Assembly: GCA_035545315.1 (NCBI GenBank)
Contig: DASZYQ010000022.1
Coordinates: forward strand, 11,913 to 75,912
Reading direction: 5' to 3'
Length of the DNA stretch: 64,000 nucleotides
DNA from: Mucilaginibacter sp.
Lineage (GTDB): Bacteria; Bacteroidota; Bacteroidia; Sphingobacteriales; Sphingobacteriaceae
The notes beneath the pieces were generated by a model that had not been told where the DNA came from, did not search any database, and saw only the letters and a program-made list of their open reading frames with translations. Position 1 is the first letter of the stretch, and the number at the start of each line of letters is the position of its first letter. Both the position numbers and the translations under genes were made by a program. Shown here in pieces: positions 50,585 through 54,366 of this stretch.

Positions 50585-50615
50585 AAAACGCCCCGAATTT
50601 CGGGGCGTCTTCTTT
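50585..50615. terminator. Bidirectional terminator
   Basis: ACGCCCCGA-att-TCGGGGCGT flanked by A- and T-rich tails, between convergent genes. Confidence 0.75.
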
Positions 50616-50632: not shown

Positions 50633-50848
50633 TTATTTCAAAATATCATAGATAAATCTAAGACAGAGGCCCGCGCCGGTCACCAGGATGATATCGGAGA
50701 TATGTGTATACATAGCCGAAATATGAGTATAGTTGGCCTGGTCGCCAATGAAGCGGAAATATAGTCCCACTACGGATACCACAACTGCCAGGATCAAAAA
50801 AAGATAATGGCGTTCTGCGTTGGCTTCTTCTGTCGAATTTGTGTTCAT
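50633..50848 (-). CDS. Small two-TM hypothetical membrane protein
   Basis: Two hydrophobic helices; TATATTTG -7 element at 50866-50873. Confidence 0.7.
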   Translation of the reverse strand: MNTNSTEEANAERHYLFLILAVVVSVVGLYFRFIGDQANYTHISAMYTHISDIILVTGAGLCLRFIYDILK

Positions 50849-50935: not shown

Positions 50936-53134
50936 TTACCAGCTGATCTCCACCTTTTCGTTCCCGCTTACAAAACATTCAACACGCCCTTTTTTACGCC
51001 TGGCTTCTACTGTTTTTCCTCCCGCGGTTATGCTTACTTGCGGAAGCTTTTTACCATTCTTTACAATTAGGGCCACCCTGCACTGCAAACGACTATCACC
51101 TTTTAAATTAAAGCTGGCCGTTTTATTTTTTAACGAAAAATTCCCGGCCGGATAGTCTGAAAAGATGATAATATCCTCGTCGTGCGTTTTAAAATAGTGC
51201 CGGGGCAATATGCCAAAAGCATTGCCCGCCCCATAAACTTCCTGGCCCACGCTGCCGCATTTTTCCCAGCCGTCGTGCAGGTCTTCTACCGCTATCCACA
51301 AGTTTTGATCCAGCTCGCCGACCTTCGGTTTTTCTTCCAGCATATCCGCGGGAAGCATCGGCGGATAATAATAAACCGCGCGGTTAACGAGGTGTTTGAT
51401 ATATTCAGCACATAGCATTCTAACCGATGACGAGATGTCTGCGCCTTCTGCATGATACAGGTAATCGTGCAATGCGCAAAATACTTCCTGCTCTTCGTAA
51501 ACCGCCGAATATGGTGCGTCATTCAAAGGAAATAAAGTAAAAAACGACGGGAAATTCTTACCATAGCCATAGTTACAGTCCCAAAGCCGGGTATTACGAA
51601 AAACATTTGCAAGGCATAAATAGCTTAGATCCAGGTAATCTTCATTTTTGGTTATTTTATACAGCCTAAGCAAGGCTCCTGCCGCAAAAGCGGTATTATT
51701 AGCCTGGTAAAACAGTTCGAAGCCTAAACCCATTAAACTTTTAGCCGCCCTTTCTGCTTCCGCCAGATATTTATCTTCATCTGTTAGCTCATACGCCTGC
51801 AGCATTACATGGGCATACAGGCCGGCAACATCCTTTTCACCGCCCTTTCCAGGCTGAGTTTCAGCTTTTATTACCTCGAGCGTTTCCATCTGGTAAAATA
51901 CGGGCCAGCGGTATTTAAAATGATGAGCAACCTTCATGGCGTAGCCAACAGAATCCGTAAAAAGCTGCTTTGCCACTTTATCGCCCTTTAACGCCAGCCG
52001 CGACAGGTTAAGCAGCGGGTGATGCAGGTACCATGAATCCATAACGTTTGGGTTTTTCTGCTCTTCTTCGCCTTCCAGCTTGTCTTTTGCTGCGGGCAGC
52101 CAGCGCATTATGGTGTGCAGCTTCCTGTCATAAAATTCAGGCAGGTTCTCTCTTATTTTGTCGACCACCGGCAGATCACAGCCGTTCCACTCGCAATAAT
52201 CGACCAACGGCAGCAGTACCGCAAGTTGCACCATGATCTCGGGCGGCGTATCGTAGTCGCACACATAAGCATTAAAATATGCCTTCCCTTTTACCTGCGA
52301 CCAGCAGCCGGGGCTTTCCGTAAGATCTTTTAAACCTTTATCCAAAATTTCAAGCCAGTTATGAAAAGTCGTTTCAGGTGTAGGCAACTGCAGGTAAGCC
52401 GTTGCCAGCATGTCAAGAAATTGCCTGGTCGTCGAGGGCTCATCGTCCGGCACACGTTGATCAAAAACGACGATCGCATCAGAAATTATAATCTCCTTGT
52501 CTGCCGCCAGGGGTTTTTGCTTGACGGTCGGAGGCAGGGCGAACCCCAGTTCTGGCCATTGGCCGCCCACCGTGTTGGCGCACGATGTTTCGGTTTGCTG
52601 ACAATAATCCGCAAGTGCGGTCAGGTTTTGCAGGTATAATAATGACCCGGCTTTGGGCCTTGTCATGCTAAAATAAAGCAACCCCGACCTACTTCCAACC
52701 TGGCTTACATGAACTTGCCCCGCGGTATTCTCAGGATTCCCGTTTTTGCCGGGAATGACGATATCCCTTGGCCAAAACGGGATCAAAAGCTCGGTACGCG
52801 GCCTTAAGGTGGTTGTATAACGAAGCAGAGGGAAGTCGCCGCCATCGGGCCACCTTACCGCCACATTAAATTCGCCGATGACGGAACTGAGCGAAATGTT
52901 GATACCATCCTTGTCTCTTCTCTTTTGTCTTATGGTCAATTCGCCATCCGGCGCATACGCCGGGCGGAAAACTATCCGGCCGCCATTGTCCCATTCAGCC
53001 ATGATCCAAAGCGAGTCGGCAGTACTAAATATTTTGAAAGTAAATCCCCTGGTTTCCGTAGTGTAAATACAGGCCAGGTCTTCGTCTGCAAAAGCGTCGC
53101 CTGCCGCGGCGGCCCATGGTGATATTCCGTTCAT
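50936..53134 (-). CDS. Conserved-looking hypothetical cytoplasmic protein, possible (alpha/alpha)6 glycosidase-like core
   Basis: 732-aa ORF, no signal peptide; helical segments such as LYAHVMLQAYELTDEDKYLAEAERAA and LLRLYKITKNEDYL recall six-hairpin repeats; downstream of GH130. Confidence 0.7.
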   Translation of the reverse strand: MNGISPWAAAAGDAFADEDLACIYTTETRGFTFKIFSTADSLWIMAEWDNGGRIVFRPAYAPDGELTIRQKRRDKDGINISLSSVIGEFNVAVRWPDGGDFPLLRYTTTLRPRTELLIPFWPRDIVIPGKNGNPENTAGQVHVSQVGSRSGLLYFSMTRPKAGSLLYLQNLTALADYCQQTETSCANTVGGQWPELGFALPPTVKQKPLAADKEIIISDAIVVFDQRVPDDEPSTTRQFLDMLATAYLQLPTPETTFHNWLEILDKGLKDLTESPGCWSQVKGKAYFNAYVCDYDTPPEIMVQLAVLLPLVDYCEWNGCDLPVVDKIRENLPEFYDRKLHTIMRWLPAAKDKLEGEEEQKNPNVMDSWYLHHPLLNLSRLALKGDKVAKQLFTDSVGYAMKVAHHFKYRWPVFYQMETLEVIKAETQPGKGGEKDVAGLYAHVMLQAYELTDEDKYLAEAERAAKSLMGLGFELFYQANNTAFAAGALLRLYKITKNEDYLDLSYLCLANVFRNTRLWDCNYGYGKNFPSFFTLFPLNDAPYSAVYEEQEVFCALHDYLYHAEGADISSSVRMLCAEYIKHLVNRAVYYYPPMLPADMLEEKPKVGELDQNLWIAVEDLHDGWEKCGSVGQEVYGAGNAFGILPRHYFKTHDEDIIIFSDYPAGNFSLKNKTASFNLKGDSRLQCRVALIVKNGKKLPQVSITAGGKTVEARRKKGRVECFVSGNEKVEISW

Positions 53135-53223
53135 CTTTTACCCGGTTCAAGTCAATATGCGTACTATTAACAGAACACTTATTTAAACTGTTTGCAGACC
53201 GGCATCATTCCGATGTCTTTTGG

Positions 53224-54279
53224 TCACCGGCCTAAAGCAGCCAGTATTTCTTTTATGGAAAAATGAGCGCCGCAAACGAATTCGTCGGCGGCTCCATAAT
53301 AAAGGGTGATTGTGTCACCATCGGGCTCTGCAATGTGCCCGTTGGTAAATACTACATGGCCAAAAAAACCGCTTGTTTCGTATGTTTCCAGGGGTTCCAT
53401 AATGGGTTCATCGGTTCGCGCAATGACTTTAGAAGGATCTTTCAGGTCCAGCAAGAACGCTCCGAGACAATAACGGTGTTCTAACGTGGCACCGTGATAG
53501 ATCTCCAGCCAGCCCTTTTCGGTTTTGATAGGTGCGGCGCCCGCCCCAACGCGCGCGCTGTCCCACTTGCCTGCACGGGTTTTAATTATGCATTGGTGAT
53601 TGCCCCAATGGGTACCGTCGGGCGATTCGGCCAGCCAGATGTAATTGCCCCCGAGGTCGACGCTGCTGGGCCGATGTAACATGTAATAAAGACCATTGAT
53701 CTTTTCTTCAAATATGGCGCAGTCCTTATTATGCGGCGGCAGGATCAGGCCATGTGATCTGAAATTTTTCCAGTCGGCTGTAGTTTTCATGCCAACGGCG
53801 ACACCGCTTTCAGAAACGGCGGTAAAGGTGAGGTAATATTGTCCTTCAAGAAATGTCACACGGCAATCCTCTACGCCGAACGTTTGCAACGGGCCTTGTC
53901 CGAATATTTTTTTATAGCCCTCGGGCTCATAAAATTTAATTCCATCGTCGCTGCAAAGCAACCGCAAATGGGATAGCGTGGTTAAATAGTCTATTCCCTT
54001 ATATCTTATAACACGCGCGTCAGTCGCTATCAGGTCGGCATCATTTAAGGGAATTTCCATAATCTGTGTTTCACCGTTTTCCTTCAATACCGGGAAGGAA
54101 ATATGGACTTCGCTTTGCTGCGGCCGTTCGGCAACACGTACCAGCAGCCATGTTTTATTCTGGAACCTGAATACGCCCGGATTGAGCAGACAGGCAATAT
54201 GCAGCCCGGCGCCGCTTGGCGGCAAATCTTTTGGCGACAATAAGGGATTTTGGGGAAACCGTTTGGCTATATCGGGCAT
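53224..54279 (-). CDS. Glycoside hydrolase family 130 mannoside phosphorylase (beta-1,2-mannobiose/oligomannan phosphorylase-like)
   Basis: NPGV, RVAERP, YLTTLSHLR, GVEDCRVT, NKD, HRPS, YHGA, VVFTNG, YYGAAD; by recall matches the Listeria Lin0857-type subgroup. Confidence 0.88.
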   Translation of the reverse strand: MPDIAKRFPQNPLLSPKDLPPSGAGLHIACLLNPGVFRFQNKTWLLVRVAERPQQSEVHISFPVLKENGETQIMEIPLNDADLIATDARVIRYKGIDYLTTLSHLRLLCSDDGIKFYEPEGYKKIFGQGPLQTFGVEDCRVTFLEGQYYLTFTAVSESGVAVGMKTTADWKNFRSHGLILPPHNKDCAIFEEKINGLYYMLHRPSSVDLGGNYIWLAESPDGTHWGNHQCIIKTRAGKWDSARVGAGAAPIKTEKGWLEIYHGATLEHRYCLGAFLLDLKDPSKVIARTDEPIMEPLETYETSGFFGHVVFTNGHIAEPDGDTITLYYGAADEFVCGAHFSIKEILAALGR

Positions 54280-54366
54280 AACTGTATTTTCAAACTAACA
54301 GCTATGCCCGACGGATTGTTGATTTCGGCCTCCGATAAAGTTCATTTAATGTTTTTCAAACCTGGC

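Follow-up and report, generated by a model that had tools for sequence, protein, structure and literature searches.

β-1,2-Mannosides are found in Candida cell walls, some bacterial glycans and parasite reserves. To our knowledge, the only bacterial enzymes known for these mannosides are GH130 members, and we know of no bacterial β-1,2-mannan reserve. Among the described systems, the Teth514_1785–1796 cluster of Thermoanaerobacter sp. X-514 contains two GH130_6 β-1,2-mannoside phosphorylases that differ in chain-length preference, and a role in GDP-mannose salvage has been proposed for it (PMC4264767). The residue roles of the GH130_4 enzyme Uhgb_MS are described in PMC12814180, which does not discuss the genomic setting of the enzyme; a subfamily-specific lid loop, with R88 and V89, caps its products at DP3. 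Abstracts on GH130 and GH65 offer precedent for switches from a carboxylate to a phosphate pocket, and according to its abstract GH65 holds both phosphorylases and hydrolases.

Here, we analyze a pair of genes from Mucilaginibacter sp., located in a DNA stretch of 64,000 nucleotides (the window), which encode a GH130 protein of 351 aa and a protein of 732 aa. For the family of the latter, our searches turned up neither a Pfam model nor a solved structure nor a published study.

Locus organization

The two genes were described in an earlier sequence-only reading as consecutive and on the same strand, and both open reading frames are present exactly where it placed them, 89 bp apart (Table 1). 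A terminator scan of this spacer detected no minus-strand stem with a T-run after it. We infer that the two genes are co-transcribed. Neither a consensus promoter nor a terminator was found in the region 5' of the GH130 gene. The N-termini, MPDIAKRFPQNPLLSPKDLPP... and MNGISPWAAAAGDAFADEDL..., show no basic n-region followed by a hydrophobic core on direct reading of the sequence, in agreement with the claim that neither protein has a signal peptide.

Table 1. Features of the gene pair (window positions).
Feature	Positions	Strand	Basis or remarks
GH130 subfamily 4 gene, 351 aa (P0002)	53224..54279	-	Predicted cytoplasmic β-1,2-mannobiose/-triose phosphorylase; PF04041 and PDB matches
732-aa protein gene (P0001)	50936..53134	-	ORF, stop codon included
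P0001 N-terminal β-sandwich, about aa 1–228	52451..53134	-	Model strands 22–225; invariant Y167, Q169
P0001 (α/α)6 barrel, about aa 229–650	51185..52450	-	Model helix pairs and Foldseek matches
P0001 C-terminal β-sandwich, about aa 651–732 and stop codon	50936..51184	-	Model strands 655–731
Spacer between GH130 gene and 732-aa gene, 89 bp	53135..53223	-	Terminator scan and sequence reading
Region 5' of GH130 gene, after DUF4349 gene, 87 bp	54280..54366	-	Sequence reading

The pair is flanked by DUF4349, atpG and atpA on one side, and by gldB, nadE and DUF4136 on the other. SusC/D, a transporter and a regulator are all absent within ~7 kb, so the locus is not a PUL, in line with the earlier reading, which called it not a typical one. 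Near the pair, we found neither a transporter nor a synthase for the substrate it is presumed to act on. In a congener, gldB adjoins DUF4349, with neither gene of the pair at that site.

The 351-aa protein is a predicted GH130_4 phosphorylase

The 351-aa protein matches the GH130 five-bladed propeller domain of Pfam (PF04041) with an E-value of 3.9e-45 (154.6 bits; cut-off, 26). Among solved structures, it is closest to Uhgb_MS (PDB 9EQQ, 9ERG and 9ERH; E 1e-154), which aligns end to end at roughly 70% identity as estimated by eye, and Lin0857 (PDB 5B0P) is matched with an E-value of 6e-88. Residues R48, R89, V90, E137, D138, K185, R203, N212 and R243 are equivalent to R47, R88, V89, E136, D137, K184, R202, N211 and R242 of Uhgb_MS. 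Thus, the β-1,2 specificity residues (R47 and E136 in Uhgb_MS) and the adjacent catalytic aspartate are kept as R48, E137 and D138, the latter two in the motif VEDCR, as are the basic phosphate-binding residues (K185, R203 and R243). The GH130_4 lid loop of ~48 residues is also kept, with residues 53–101 aligning to Uhgb_MS without gaps and both R89 and V90 present. In loop L2, P206 and E207 of Uhgb_MS are replaced by Val and Asp, so that the GDP-mannose transferase activity, a weak side reaction, may be different in the 351-aa protein.

The protein scores below the equivalog cut-offs of NCBIfam (385 bits against 550 for NF050092, and 189 against 450 for NF052550), indicating that it is a relative rather than a member of these equivalogs; the match to the Uhgb_MS structures is much closer. 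The sequence-only reading had assigned the protein to the Lin0857-type β-1,2 class, and the PDB matches and specificity residues refine this placement to GH130_4. Both lines of evidence point to the β-1,2 class and not to a β-1,4-specific enzyme. On these grounds, the 351-aa protein is predicted to be a β-1,2-mannobiose/-triose phosphorylase of GH130_4.

Sequence and predicted structure of the 732-aa protein

All four acidic and aromatic motifs noted previously are present in the 732-aa protein: MDSWYLHHP (365–373), GGEKDVAG (431–438), YEEQE (546–550) and GQEVYGAG (630–637). Among their positions, D366, W368, Y369, G432, E547, G630, Q631, Y634 and G635 do not vary across 50 homologues, and D435 and E632 are nearly invariant. 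The family comprises at least 707 representative clusters at 50% identity. No Pfam model scores over threshold with the 732-aa protein (C5-epim_C, 21.2 bits against 23.3; GH88, 14.4 against 26.6), NCBIfam returned no match, and a literature search found no paper on the family. Sequence searches of the PDB, using phmmer with the protein itself or hmmsearch with a 50-member profile, gave E-values of 0.007 or higher, with chance-level matches of single hairpins to LanC-like proteins and GH76, which we discarded. Since no described Pfam, NCBIfam or PDB family covers the protein, the earlier suggestion of a new CAZyme family is reasonable, although unproven.

The sub-threshold Pfam matches raise an alternative, in which the protein acts on a substrate other than a mannoside, such as a uronic-acid polymer, with C5-epimerase, GH88 or lyase-like chemistry and an indirect link to GH130. 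C5-epim_C is matched in 20 and GH88 in 19 of 50 members, a few relatives are labelled in UniRef and NCBI as "D-glucuronyl C5-epimerase C-terminal domain-containing" or "GH88", and a glucuronate isomerase gene adjoins the M. aquariorum locus. However, these matches lie below the curated cut-offs and span one helical hairpin of about 30–70 residues, and GH130 genes adjoin three separate branches of the family. A substrate other than a mannoside is thus very improbable.

An AlphaFold2 model of the 732-aa protein was obtained with high scores (pLDDT 95.0, pTM 0.95). It matches the β-rich N-terminus, helical-repeat middle and β tail that had been proposed from sequence, and the search for an (α/α)6 barrel with conserved acids was likewise positive. 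Paired helices extend across residues 232–646, with invariant residues at the helix starts. The residues conserved family-wide within the barrel are D366, W368, Y369, D435, Y476, E547, E617, D618, Q631 and Y634. A Foldseek search against the PDB gave 146 matches at E≤0.001, of which the best 50 are almost all six-hairpin enzymes. These include GH94, GH127, GH95, AGE, GH76 and GH116 barrels (E 1e-10 to 1e-6), all of them remote; GH94 phosphorylases, which have the same three-domain layout as the 732-aa protein, are numerous among the listed matches. As modelled, the 732-aa protein belongs to the six-hairpin (α/α)6 glycosidase-like superfamily.

The best barrel superpositions among the listed matches are those of the AGE family, namely the D-mannose isomerase 5X32 (TMt 0.59), YihS and cellobiose 2-epimerase. 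The 732-aa protein could accordingly be a sugar isomerase or epimerase that modifies either the mannose that GH130 liberates or the GH130 substrate at its reducing end. The partnering of a cellobiose 2-epimerase with the GH130_1 mannosylglucose phosphorylase is an established precedent for such an arrangement, and one paralogue of the 732-aa protein has a PfkB kinase and a ManC-like nucleotidyltransferase as its flanking neighbours. Yet its identity to AGE enzymes is just 8–13%. AGE enzymes are single-domain proteins with a His pair, whereas the 732-aa family has no invariant histidine, its sole conserved one (H372) being specific to the cytoplasmic class described below; the CBM96 modules and T9SS tails of secreted relatives are better explained by polymer cleavage. 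We therefore give an isomerase little credence.

Linkage of the two genes across genomes

The pairing of the two genes pointed out by the earlier reading recurs in other genomes, where the 732-aa family and this GH130 clade co-occur well above chance, both within and across phyla. A GH130_4 orthologue lies within 7 kb of a relative of the 732-aa protein in 37 of 80 loci and is not adjacent in the other 43. At least five arrangements of the linked pair were observed in these loci (tandem, divergent, convergent, reversed and spaced). GH130_4 is present in all seven carriers of the 732-aa family in a sample of 401 Bacteroidota genomes, compared to 10 of 394 non-carriers, and GH130 is present in 12 of 13 carriers and 24 of 138 non-carriers in a sample of 151 Sphingomonadaceae genomes, although the genomes within each sample are related to one another, such that Fisher values overstate the significance. 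The two genes are far apart in the remaining six carrier genomes of the Bacteroidota sample, and the seven loci of this sample with a non-adjacent GH130 gene revealed no conserved neighbour. In Sphingomonas, the operon order in one case is barrel-SDR-GH130, at an identity of only about 30% in both partners. Overall, three separate branches of the 732-aa family, in two phyla, adjoin GH130 genes. The 732-aa and 351-aa proteins very probably act in one pathway.

Secreted relatives and a change of residues in the barrel

Distant members of the 732-aa family bear signal peptides, CBM96 modules and T9SS tails, and they differ from the window protein at four barrel positions (344, 372, 477 and 479). 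Arg, His, Gln and Asn at these positions define a cytoplasmic class of 87 representatives. R344 is found together with Q477 in 96 representatives, of which 85 lack a signal-like N-terminus and 11 have one, according to a crude signal-peptide test. About 16 representatives, mostly signal-bearing, have N/D-x-E-H at the same positions and define a secreted class. Both classes retain D366, D435, E547, E617 and D618.

A 571-aa family, a remote secreted branch, is homologous to the secreted class (hhalign probability 96.5%, E 8e-10). The probability with the cytoplasmic-class profile is just 53%, and the homology is hence convincing only via the secreted class. The AlphaFold model of this family is poor (pLDDT 53). 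This secreted family, too, has an invariant glutamate at the position aligned to 477. In related genomes, the 571-aa family is sited in SusC-SusD-GH130_4-MFS loci; it is present in seven of the sampled GH130_4 genomes, all of which lack the cytoplasmic form, and its long forms were seen beside other GH130 genes at 8 of the 10 loci inspected. The occurrence of remote secreted relatives beside GH130_4 in SusC/D uptake loci points to external β-mannan breakdown as the ancestral theme and disfavours a purely internal role of the pair.

The replacement of E477 by glutamine, along with R344 and H372, fits at the level of sequence positions the pattern of GH94 and GH65, where a basic or polar phosphate pocket replaces the catalytic base. 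We infer that the difference between R344/H372/Q477/N479 and the secreted-class residues is a phosphorylase-versus-hydrolase switch, although the catalytic base of the secreted forms may be a residue other than E477. The cytoplasmic protein could instead be an ordinary glycoside hydrolase, an endo- or exo-β-mannosidase that trims imported or internal β-mannosides with water and passes di- and trisaccharides to GH130. The barrel fold and the five acids common to both classes are consistent with this function, the six-hairpin families among the best 50 of the 146 Foldseek matches are mostly hydrolases, and the linkage to GH130 fits equally well. However, hydrolysis beside a phosphorylase would dissipate the glycosidic bond energy, and it leaves the uniform loss of E477 and gain of R344 and H372 unexplained. 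We regard a hydrolase as rather unlikely, but worth keeping in view.

Genomic context and possible substrates

Many relatives of the 732-aa protein are located in general-stress gene islands, together with DUF892 (YciE/F-like), Mn catalase, SDR, DUF6766 and pyrophosphatase genes, while the window copy of the pair lies between housekeeping genes, outside any such island. The intracellular storage, osmolyte or GDP-mannose salvage role suggested in the earlier reading may apply; the hints of an internal or stress-related function come from genomic context, namely these islands and the ManC-like and PfkB neighbours of one paralogue. The alphaproteobacterial EcfG general-stress promoter (GGAAC-N16-17-CGTT) was considered upstream of the Sphingomonadaceae copies and rejected, with a loose match at best, in just 3 of 14. 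The substrate could be derived from imported fungal or bacterial β-1,2-mannan fragments, or from an internal stress-linked mannoside.

The stress islands could also reflect a synthetic pair, in which GH130, running in reverse or fed with GDP-mannose, would make short β-1,2-mannosides that a barrel transglycosylase extends or caps into a stress-protective or reserve sugar. GH130_4 enzymes do make mannobiose and mannotriose from mannose-1-phosphate and, weakly, from GDP-mannose (PMC12814180), but the authors of the Uhgb_MS study consider the transferase activity probably not physiological (PMC12814180). Furthermore, no glycosyltransferase recurs among the genes neighbouring the family, the window copy has its housekeeping setting, and the secreted relatives in uptake loci indicate breakdown. 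Synthesis thus seems a highly doubtful role.

Proposed mechanism

We tentatively propose that the two genes form a cytoplasmic β-mannoside-cleaving module and are inherited together, an explanation which, taken as a whole, falls somewhat short of an even chance. By homology, the 351-aa enzyme would use phosphate to split β-1,2-mannobiose and -triose into α-mannose-1-phosphate and mannose, its lid loop restricting substrates to two or three sugars. The fold, conserved residues and gene linkage suggest catalytic activity for the 732-aa protein, as a member of a previously undescribed three-domain (α/α)6 family whose branches are all associated with GH130. It would act upstream of GH130, trimming a longer or capped β-mannoside to di- and trisaccharides. 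Because the cytoplasmic form has glutamine in place of E477 and has gained the invariant R344 and H372, its cleavage would most likely use phosphate and not water. The pair would then constitute a two-phosphorylase, ATP-sparing route to mannose-1-phosphate, with a logic like that of Teth514_1788/1789. That the 732-aa protein is a phosphorylase is a plausible but not yet probable prediction from its sequence. A more specific scenario, in which the R-H-Q-N class is a new glycoside phosphorylase family derived from secreted β-mannan hydrolases and, with GH130_4, turns over an internal stress-linked β-1,2-mannoside in soil Bacteroidota and Sphingomonadales, as a bacterial counterpart of Leishmania mannogen, is improbable.

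The enzymes that act on longer β-mannans are still missing, and the 732-aa family, with its GH130 linkage in three branches and two phyla, is a concrete candidate for this role. If the proposed switch is true, it would provide a new phosphorylase scaffold for β-mannoside synthesis, as well as insight into how soil bacteria use β-mannoside under stress.

Comparison with known systems

The locus resembles the Teth514 cluster in combining a cytoplasmic short-chain β-1,2-mannoside phosphorylase with a second enzyme presumed to act on longer substrates, and in a product, mannose-1-phosphate, that can feed GDP-mannose (PMC4264767). However, the partner in Teth514 is another GH130, whereas that in the window has an unrelated (α/α)6 fold. 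The Teth514 cluster also contains an ABC transporter, GH5, a guanylyltransferase and GT4, while the window pair has no linked transporter or transferase.

The pairing of AGE enzymes with GH130_1 likewise places an (α/α)6 enzyme beside a GH130 phosphorylase, and AGE barrels superpose best (TMt 0.52–0.59). These enzymes are single domains of about 400 aa with a catalytic His pair, unlike the 732-aa protein, which has two extra β domains, an acid-rich centre and secreted CBM-bearing relatives.

The Leishmania mannogen enzymes (GT108 mannosyltransferase/phosphorylases), to which the earlier reading had alluded, carry out intracellular β-1,2-mannan turnover with the same mannose-1-phosphate chemistry, but GT108 proteins are β-propellers related to GH130, while the 732-aa protein is a barrel. 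In its predicted architecture, the 732-aa protein resembles the GH94 and GH65 phosphorylases of cellobiose, chitobiose, cellodextrin and maltose, which have an N-terminal β-sandwich, an (α/α)6 barrel and a C-terminal β domain. It differs from them in having no detectable sequence similarity, with 8–10% identity and an overall TM of only about 0.3 in the Foldseek comparison.

Genomic setting of the gene pair

The two genes are consecutive, separated by 89 bp, and encode a GH130 enzyme of 351 aa and a protein of 732 aa. One flank carries a DUF4349 membrane protein as well as atpG and atpA of ATP synthase; the other carries gldB, nadE and a DUF4136 lipoprotein. No SusC/D, transporter or regulator was found among their neighbours in the window, and neither translation, read directly, has a signal-peptide-like start. 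The nearest relatives are in Mucilaginibacter (96% identity to a protein from a Mucilaginibacter MAG); they and the window copy are surrounded by housekeeping genes. In a genome of the same genus, both genes are absent and gldB directly adjoins DUF4349, while a relative with 80% identity shares the window's insertion. The pair thus behaves as a two-gene unit. At this site, two DUF4349 genes stand in tandem in the genome without the pair, compared to one in the window.

Immediately downstream of the 732-aa gene, before a strong terminator, is a 71-aa ORF whose product is predicted to have two membrane helices. The closest related locus (L093) has it at 96% identity, though the large protein there is only 80% identical, and no counterpart was found in the remaining 79 loci.

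Coordinates of the features discussed (L-numbers are loci from other genomes)
Feature	Location	Position	Strand	Basis
351-aa ORF (GH130)	window	53224–54279	-	ORF
732-aa ORF (barrel protein)	window	50936–53134	-	ORF
71-aa ORF	window	50633–50848	-	ORF
Bidirectional terminator	window	50588–50608		
N-terminal beta-sandwich	732-aa protein	to about residue 228		AlphaFold2 model
(alpha/alpha)6 barrel	732-aa protein	to about residue 650		AlphaFold2 model
C-terminal beta-sandwich	732-aa protein	after about residue 650		AlphaFold2 model
Two tandem DUF4349 genes	L103	6782–8577		
Sphingomonas operon (barrel protein, SDR, GH130)	L099	9001–13179		
Sphingomonas operon (barrel protein, SDR, GH130)	L100	9001–13126		
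Barrel paralogue with ManC-like and PfkB flanks	L011	7884–12219		
SusC-SusD-GH130_4-MFS locus with secreted 571/592-aa protein	L123	3112–11834		
SusC-SusD-GH130_4-MFS locus with secreted 571/592-aa protein	L124	4381–13193		

Fold and family of the 732-aa protein

No Pfam or NCBIfam model reaches its threshold on the 732-aa protein, which has no significant sequence match in the PDB either, whether searched as a single sequence or as a 50-sequence profile. The sole signals come from one helical hairpin, with sub-threshold matches to C5-epim_C, GH88, GH127, LanC and GH76. The four motifs quoted in the sequence-only reading (MDSWYLHHP, GGEKDVAG, YEEQE and GQEVYGAG) are all present, with columns conserved across homologues. 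The AlphaFold2 model, built with 50 homologues (pLDDT 95.0, pTM 0.95), contains the (alpha/alpha)6 barrel that this reading had proposed to look for, between two beta-sandwiches. Foldseek against the PDB returned remote matches only (E 1e-10 to 1e-6, 8–13% identity), including GH94 phosphorylases, GH127, GH95, GH116 and GH76; for the barrel alone, isomerases and epimerases of the AGE family match best (target TM up to 0.59). These matches place the fold among those of carbohydrate enzymes, with no characterised family close by. Its fold class is known, but the 732-aa protein is a member of no described family.

Among the candidates scored, this barrel family numbers over 1700 clusters at 90% identity, and clustering at 50% gives 707 representatives. 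It is found in Sphingobacteriaceae and Chitinophaga relatives and in Sphingomonadales.

Association of the barrel family with GH130

We collected 80 barrel loci from species-representative genomes. A GH130_4 orthologue, 65–89% identical to the window GH130, lies within 7 kb in 37 of them. The GH130 gene may be tandem upstream, tandem downstream, divergent or convergent, or lie 1–4 kb away from the barrel gene; the pair is tandem in Mucilaginibacter aquariorum and divergent in Pedobacter cryoconitis. Pedobacter sp. GR22-6 has three barrel copies (L034, L045, L053), only one with GH130 nearby; two further genomes have two copies each.

Co-occurrence with this GH130 clade, proposed as a check in the sequence-only reading, is borne out by genome surveys. 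An even sample of 401 Bacteroidota genomes contains 7 with the barrel family and 17 with GH130_4; GH130_4 occurs in all 7 barrel carriers versus 10 of 394 non-carriers. In the Sphingomonas sp. Root241 operon, a barrel member only ~32% identical to the 732-aa protein comes first, followed by an SDR and a GH130 that is 30% identical to the window GH130 and nearest to Lin0857. Among 151 Sphingomonadaceae genomes, GH130 of this type is found in 12 of 13 barrel carriers versus 24 of 138 others. The Fisher values (6e-11 for Bacteroidota, 7e-8 for Sphingomonadaceae) overstate the case, as the sampled genomes are related and not phylogenetically independent. Despite this kinship, the co-occurrence recurs in two phyla. 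No report of a systematic pairing was found in the papers searched. In 7 of the 13 Sphingomonadaceae loci the SDR comes after the barrel gene, and the GH130 frame of one Sphingomonas operon (L100) is broken by a stop codon.

Secreted relatives

Distant barrel-family members (~30% identity, 760–1180 aa) bear signal peptides by a crude criterion; in some, CBM96 and type IX secretion tails are present as well. Relatives that have GH130_4 without the cytoplasmic barrel protein place it in a SusC-SusD-GH130-MFS locus, which also encodes a secreted protein of 571–592 aa with no Pfam match. These loci look like so far uncharacterised uptake loci for beta-1,2-mannan. The secreted protein is remotely homologous to the barrel family: the profile of this 571-aa family aligns with the secreted barrel class over 306 columns (hhalign probability 96.5%, E 8e-10), pairing DSWY with RDWWY, as well as the hairpins that follow.

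The 17 GH130_4 genomes of the Bacteroidota sample divide by partner into 7 with the cytoplasmic barrel form, 7 with the secreted 571-aa family (always within ~7 kb of GH130_4), none with both and 3 with neither. No member of the secreted family was found in the window's genome, which has three GH130 genes in total. In 8 of 10 loci checked, long forms of the secreted family (~1050 aa) from other Bacteroidota families (L125–L134) have one or two diverged GH130 genes within 6 kb. That three branches of one superfamily are GH130 partners is the strongest argument that these proteins would act on beta-mannosides.

Putative functional site and mechanism

Ten residues are conserved in all classes (D366, W368, Y369, D435, Y476, E547, E617, D618, Q631 and Y634) and sit at barrel-helix starts in the model. 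Positions 344, 372, 477 and 479 switch together between classes. The cytoplasmic class has R344, H372, Q477 and N479 (the exact set in 87 representatives; R344 and Q477 in 96, of which 85 lack a signal-like N-terminus). The secreted class, about 16 mostly signal-bearing representatives, has N or D at 344, a variable 372, E477 and H479, and the 571-aa family has an invariant Glu aligned with 477.

Phosphorylases are cytoplasmic. According to abstracts on GH130 and GH65, loss of a carboxylate with gain of Arg and His is the type of change that divides phosphorylases from hydrolases in those families. The loss of E477, the Arg/His gain and the cytoplasmic location of phosphorylases together lead us to prefer phosphorolysis slightly over hydrolysis, which we consider only a little less probable. 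Assuming that the switch residues form one pocket, we tentatively suggest that the 732-aa protein would cleave its substrate by phosphorolysis.

Possible physiological context

Many Sphingobacteriaceae barrel copies are in islands rich in stress-type genes. Across the 80 loci, the recurrent neighbours are DUF892 (YciE/F-like; 30), Mn catalase (23), DUF4142 (20), a DAO-Rieske oxidoreductase (20), SDR (19), an iron-permease-family protein (17), pyrophosphatase (12) and DUF6766 (10). One recurring island (L035, L038, L042, L048, L077) contains the DAO-Rieske oxidoreductase, DUF2938, GH130 and Mn catalase (opposite strand), then the barrel protein, the iron-permease-family protein, DUF2252, pyrophosphatase, DUF421 and DUF892, and looks like a general-stress gene set. 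A search for an alphaproteobacterial general-stress promoter upstream of the Sphingomonadaceae copies failed. One Chitinophagaceae-type paralogue, from a genome with two barrel copies, has genes for a ManC-like nucleotidyltransferase and a PfkB sugar kinase at its flanks, in keeping with the earlier idea that phosphorolysis of beta-1,2-mannosides supplies GDP-mannose (PMC4264767).

Comparison of the GH130 enzyme with characterised phosphorylases

The 351-aa protein is assigned to GH130 by Pfam (E 3.9e-45). With 385 versus 550 bits it falls short of the NCBIfam equivalog thresholds, and thus belongs to the subfamily without being an exact equivalog of those models. Among solved structures it is nearest to Uhgb_MS (9EQQ, 9ERG, 9ERH; E 1e-154), with which it aligns from end to end; Lin0857 comes second (E 6e-88). 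Uhgb_MS, a member of GH130_4, phosphorolyses beta-1,2-mannobiose and also builds mannobiose and mannotriose out of mannose-1-phosphate; as a GDP-mannose transferase it is ~1000-fold less active, and its authors regard this activity as possibly not physiological (PMC12814180). The beta-1,2 specificity residues are kept, which agrees with the initial placement among Lin0857-type beta-1,2 enzymes rather than beta-1,4-specific ones. Judged by sequence, this GH130 is a new member of an already characterised subfamily. It retains R48, R89, V90, E137, D138, K185, R203, N212 and R243, and so shares with Uhgb_MS every residue assigned a role in catalysis, in binding phosphate, in beta-1,2 specificity or in the lid that limits chain length (PMC12814180); the sole differences at named residues are P206 and E207 of loop L2.
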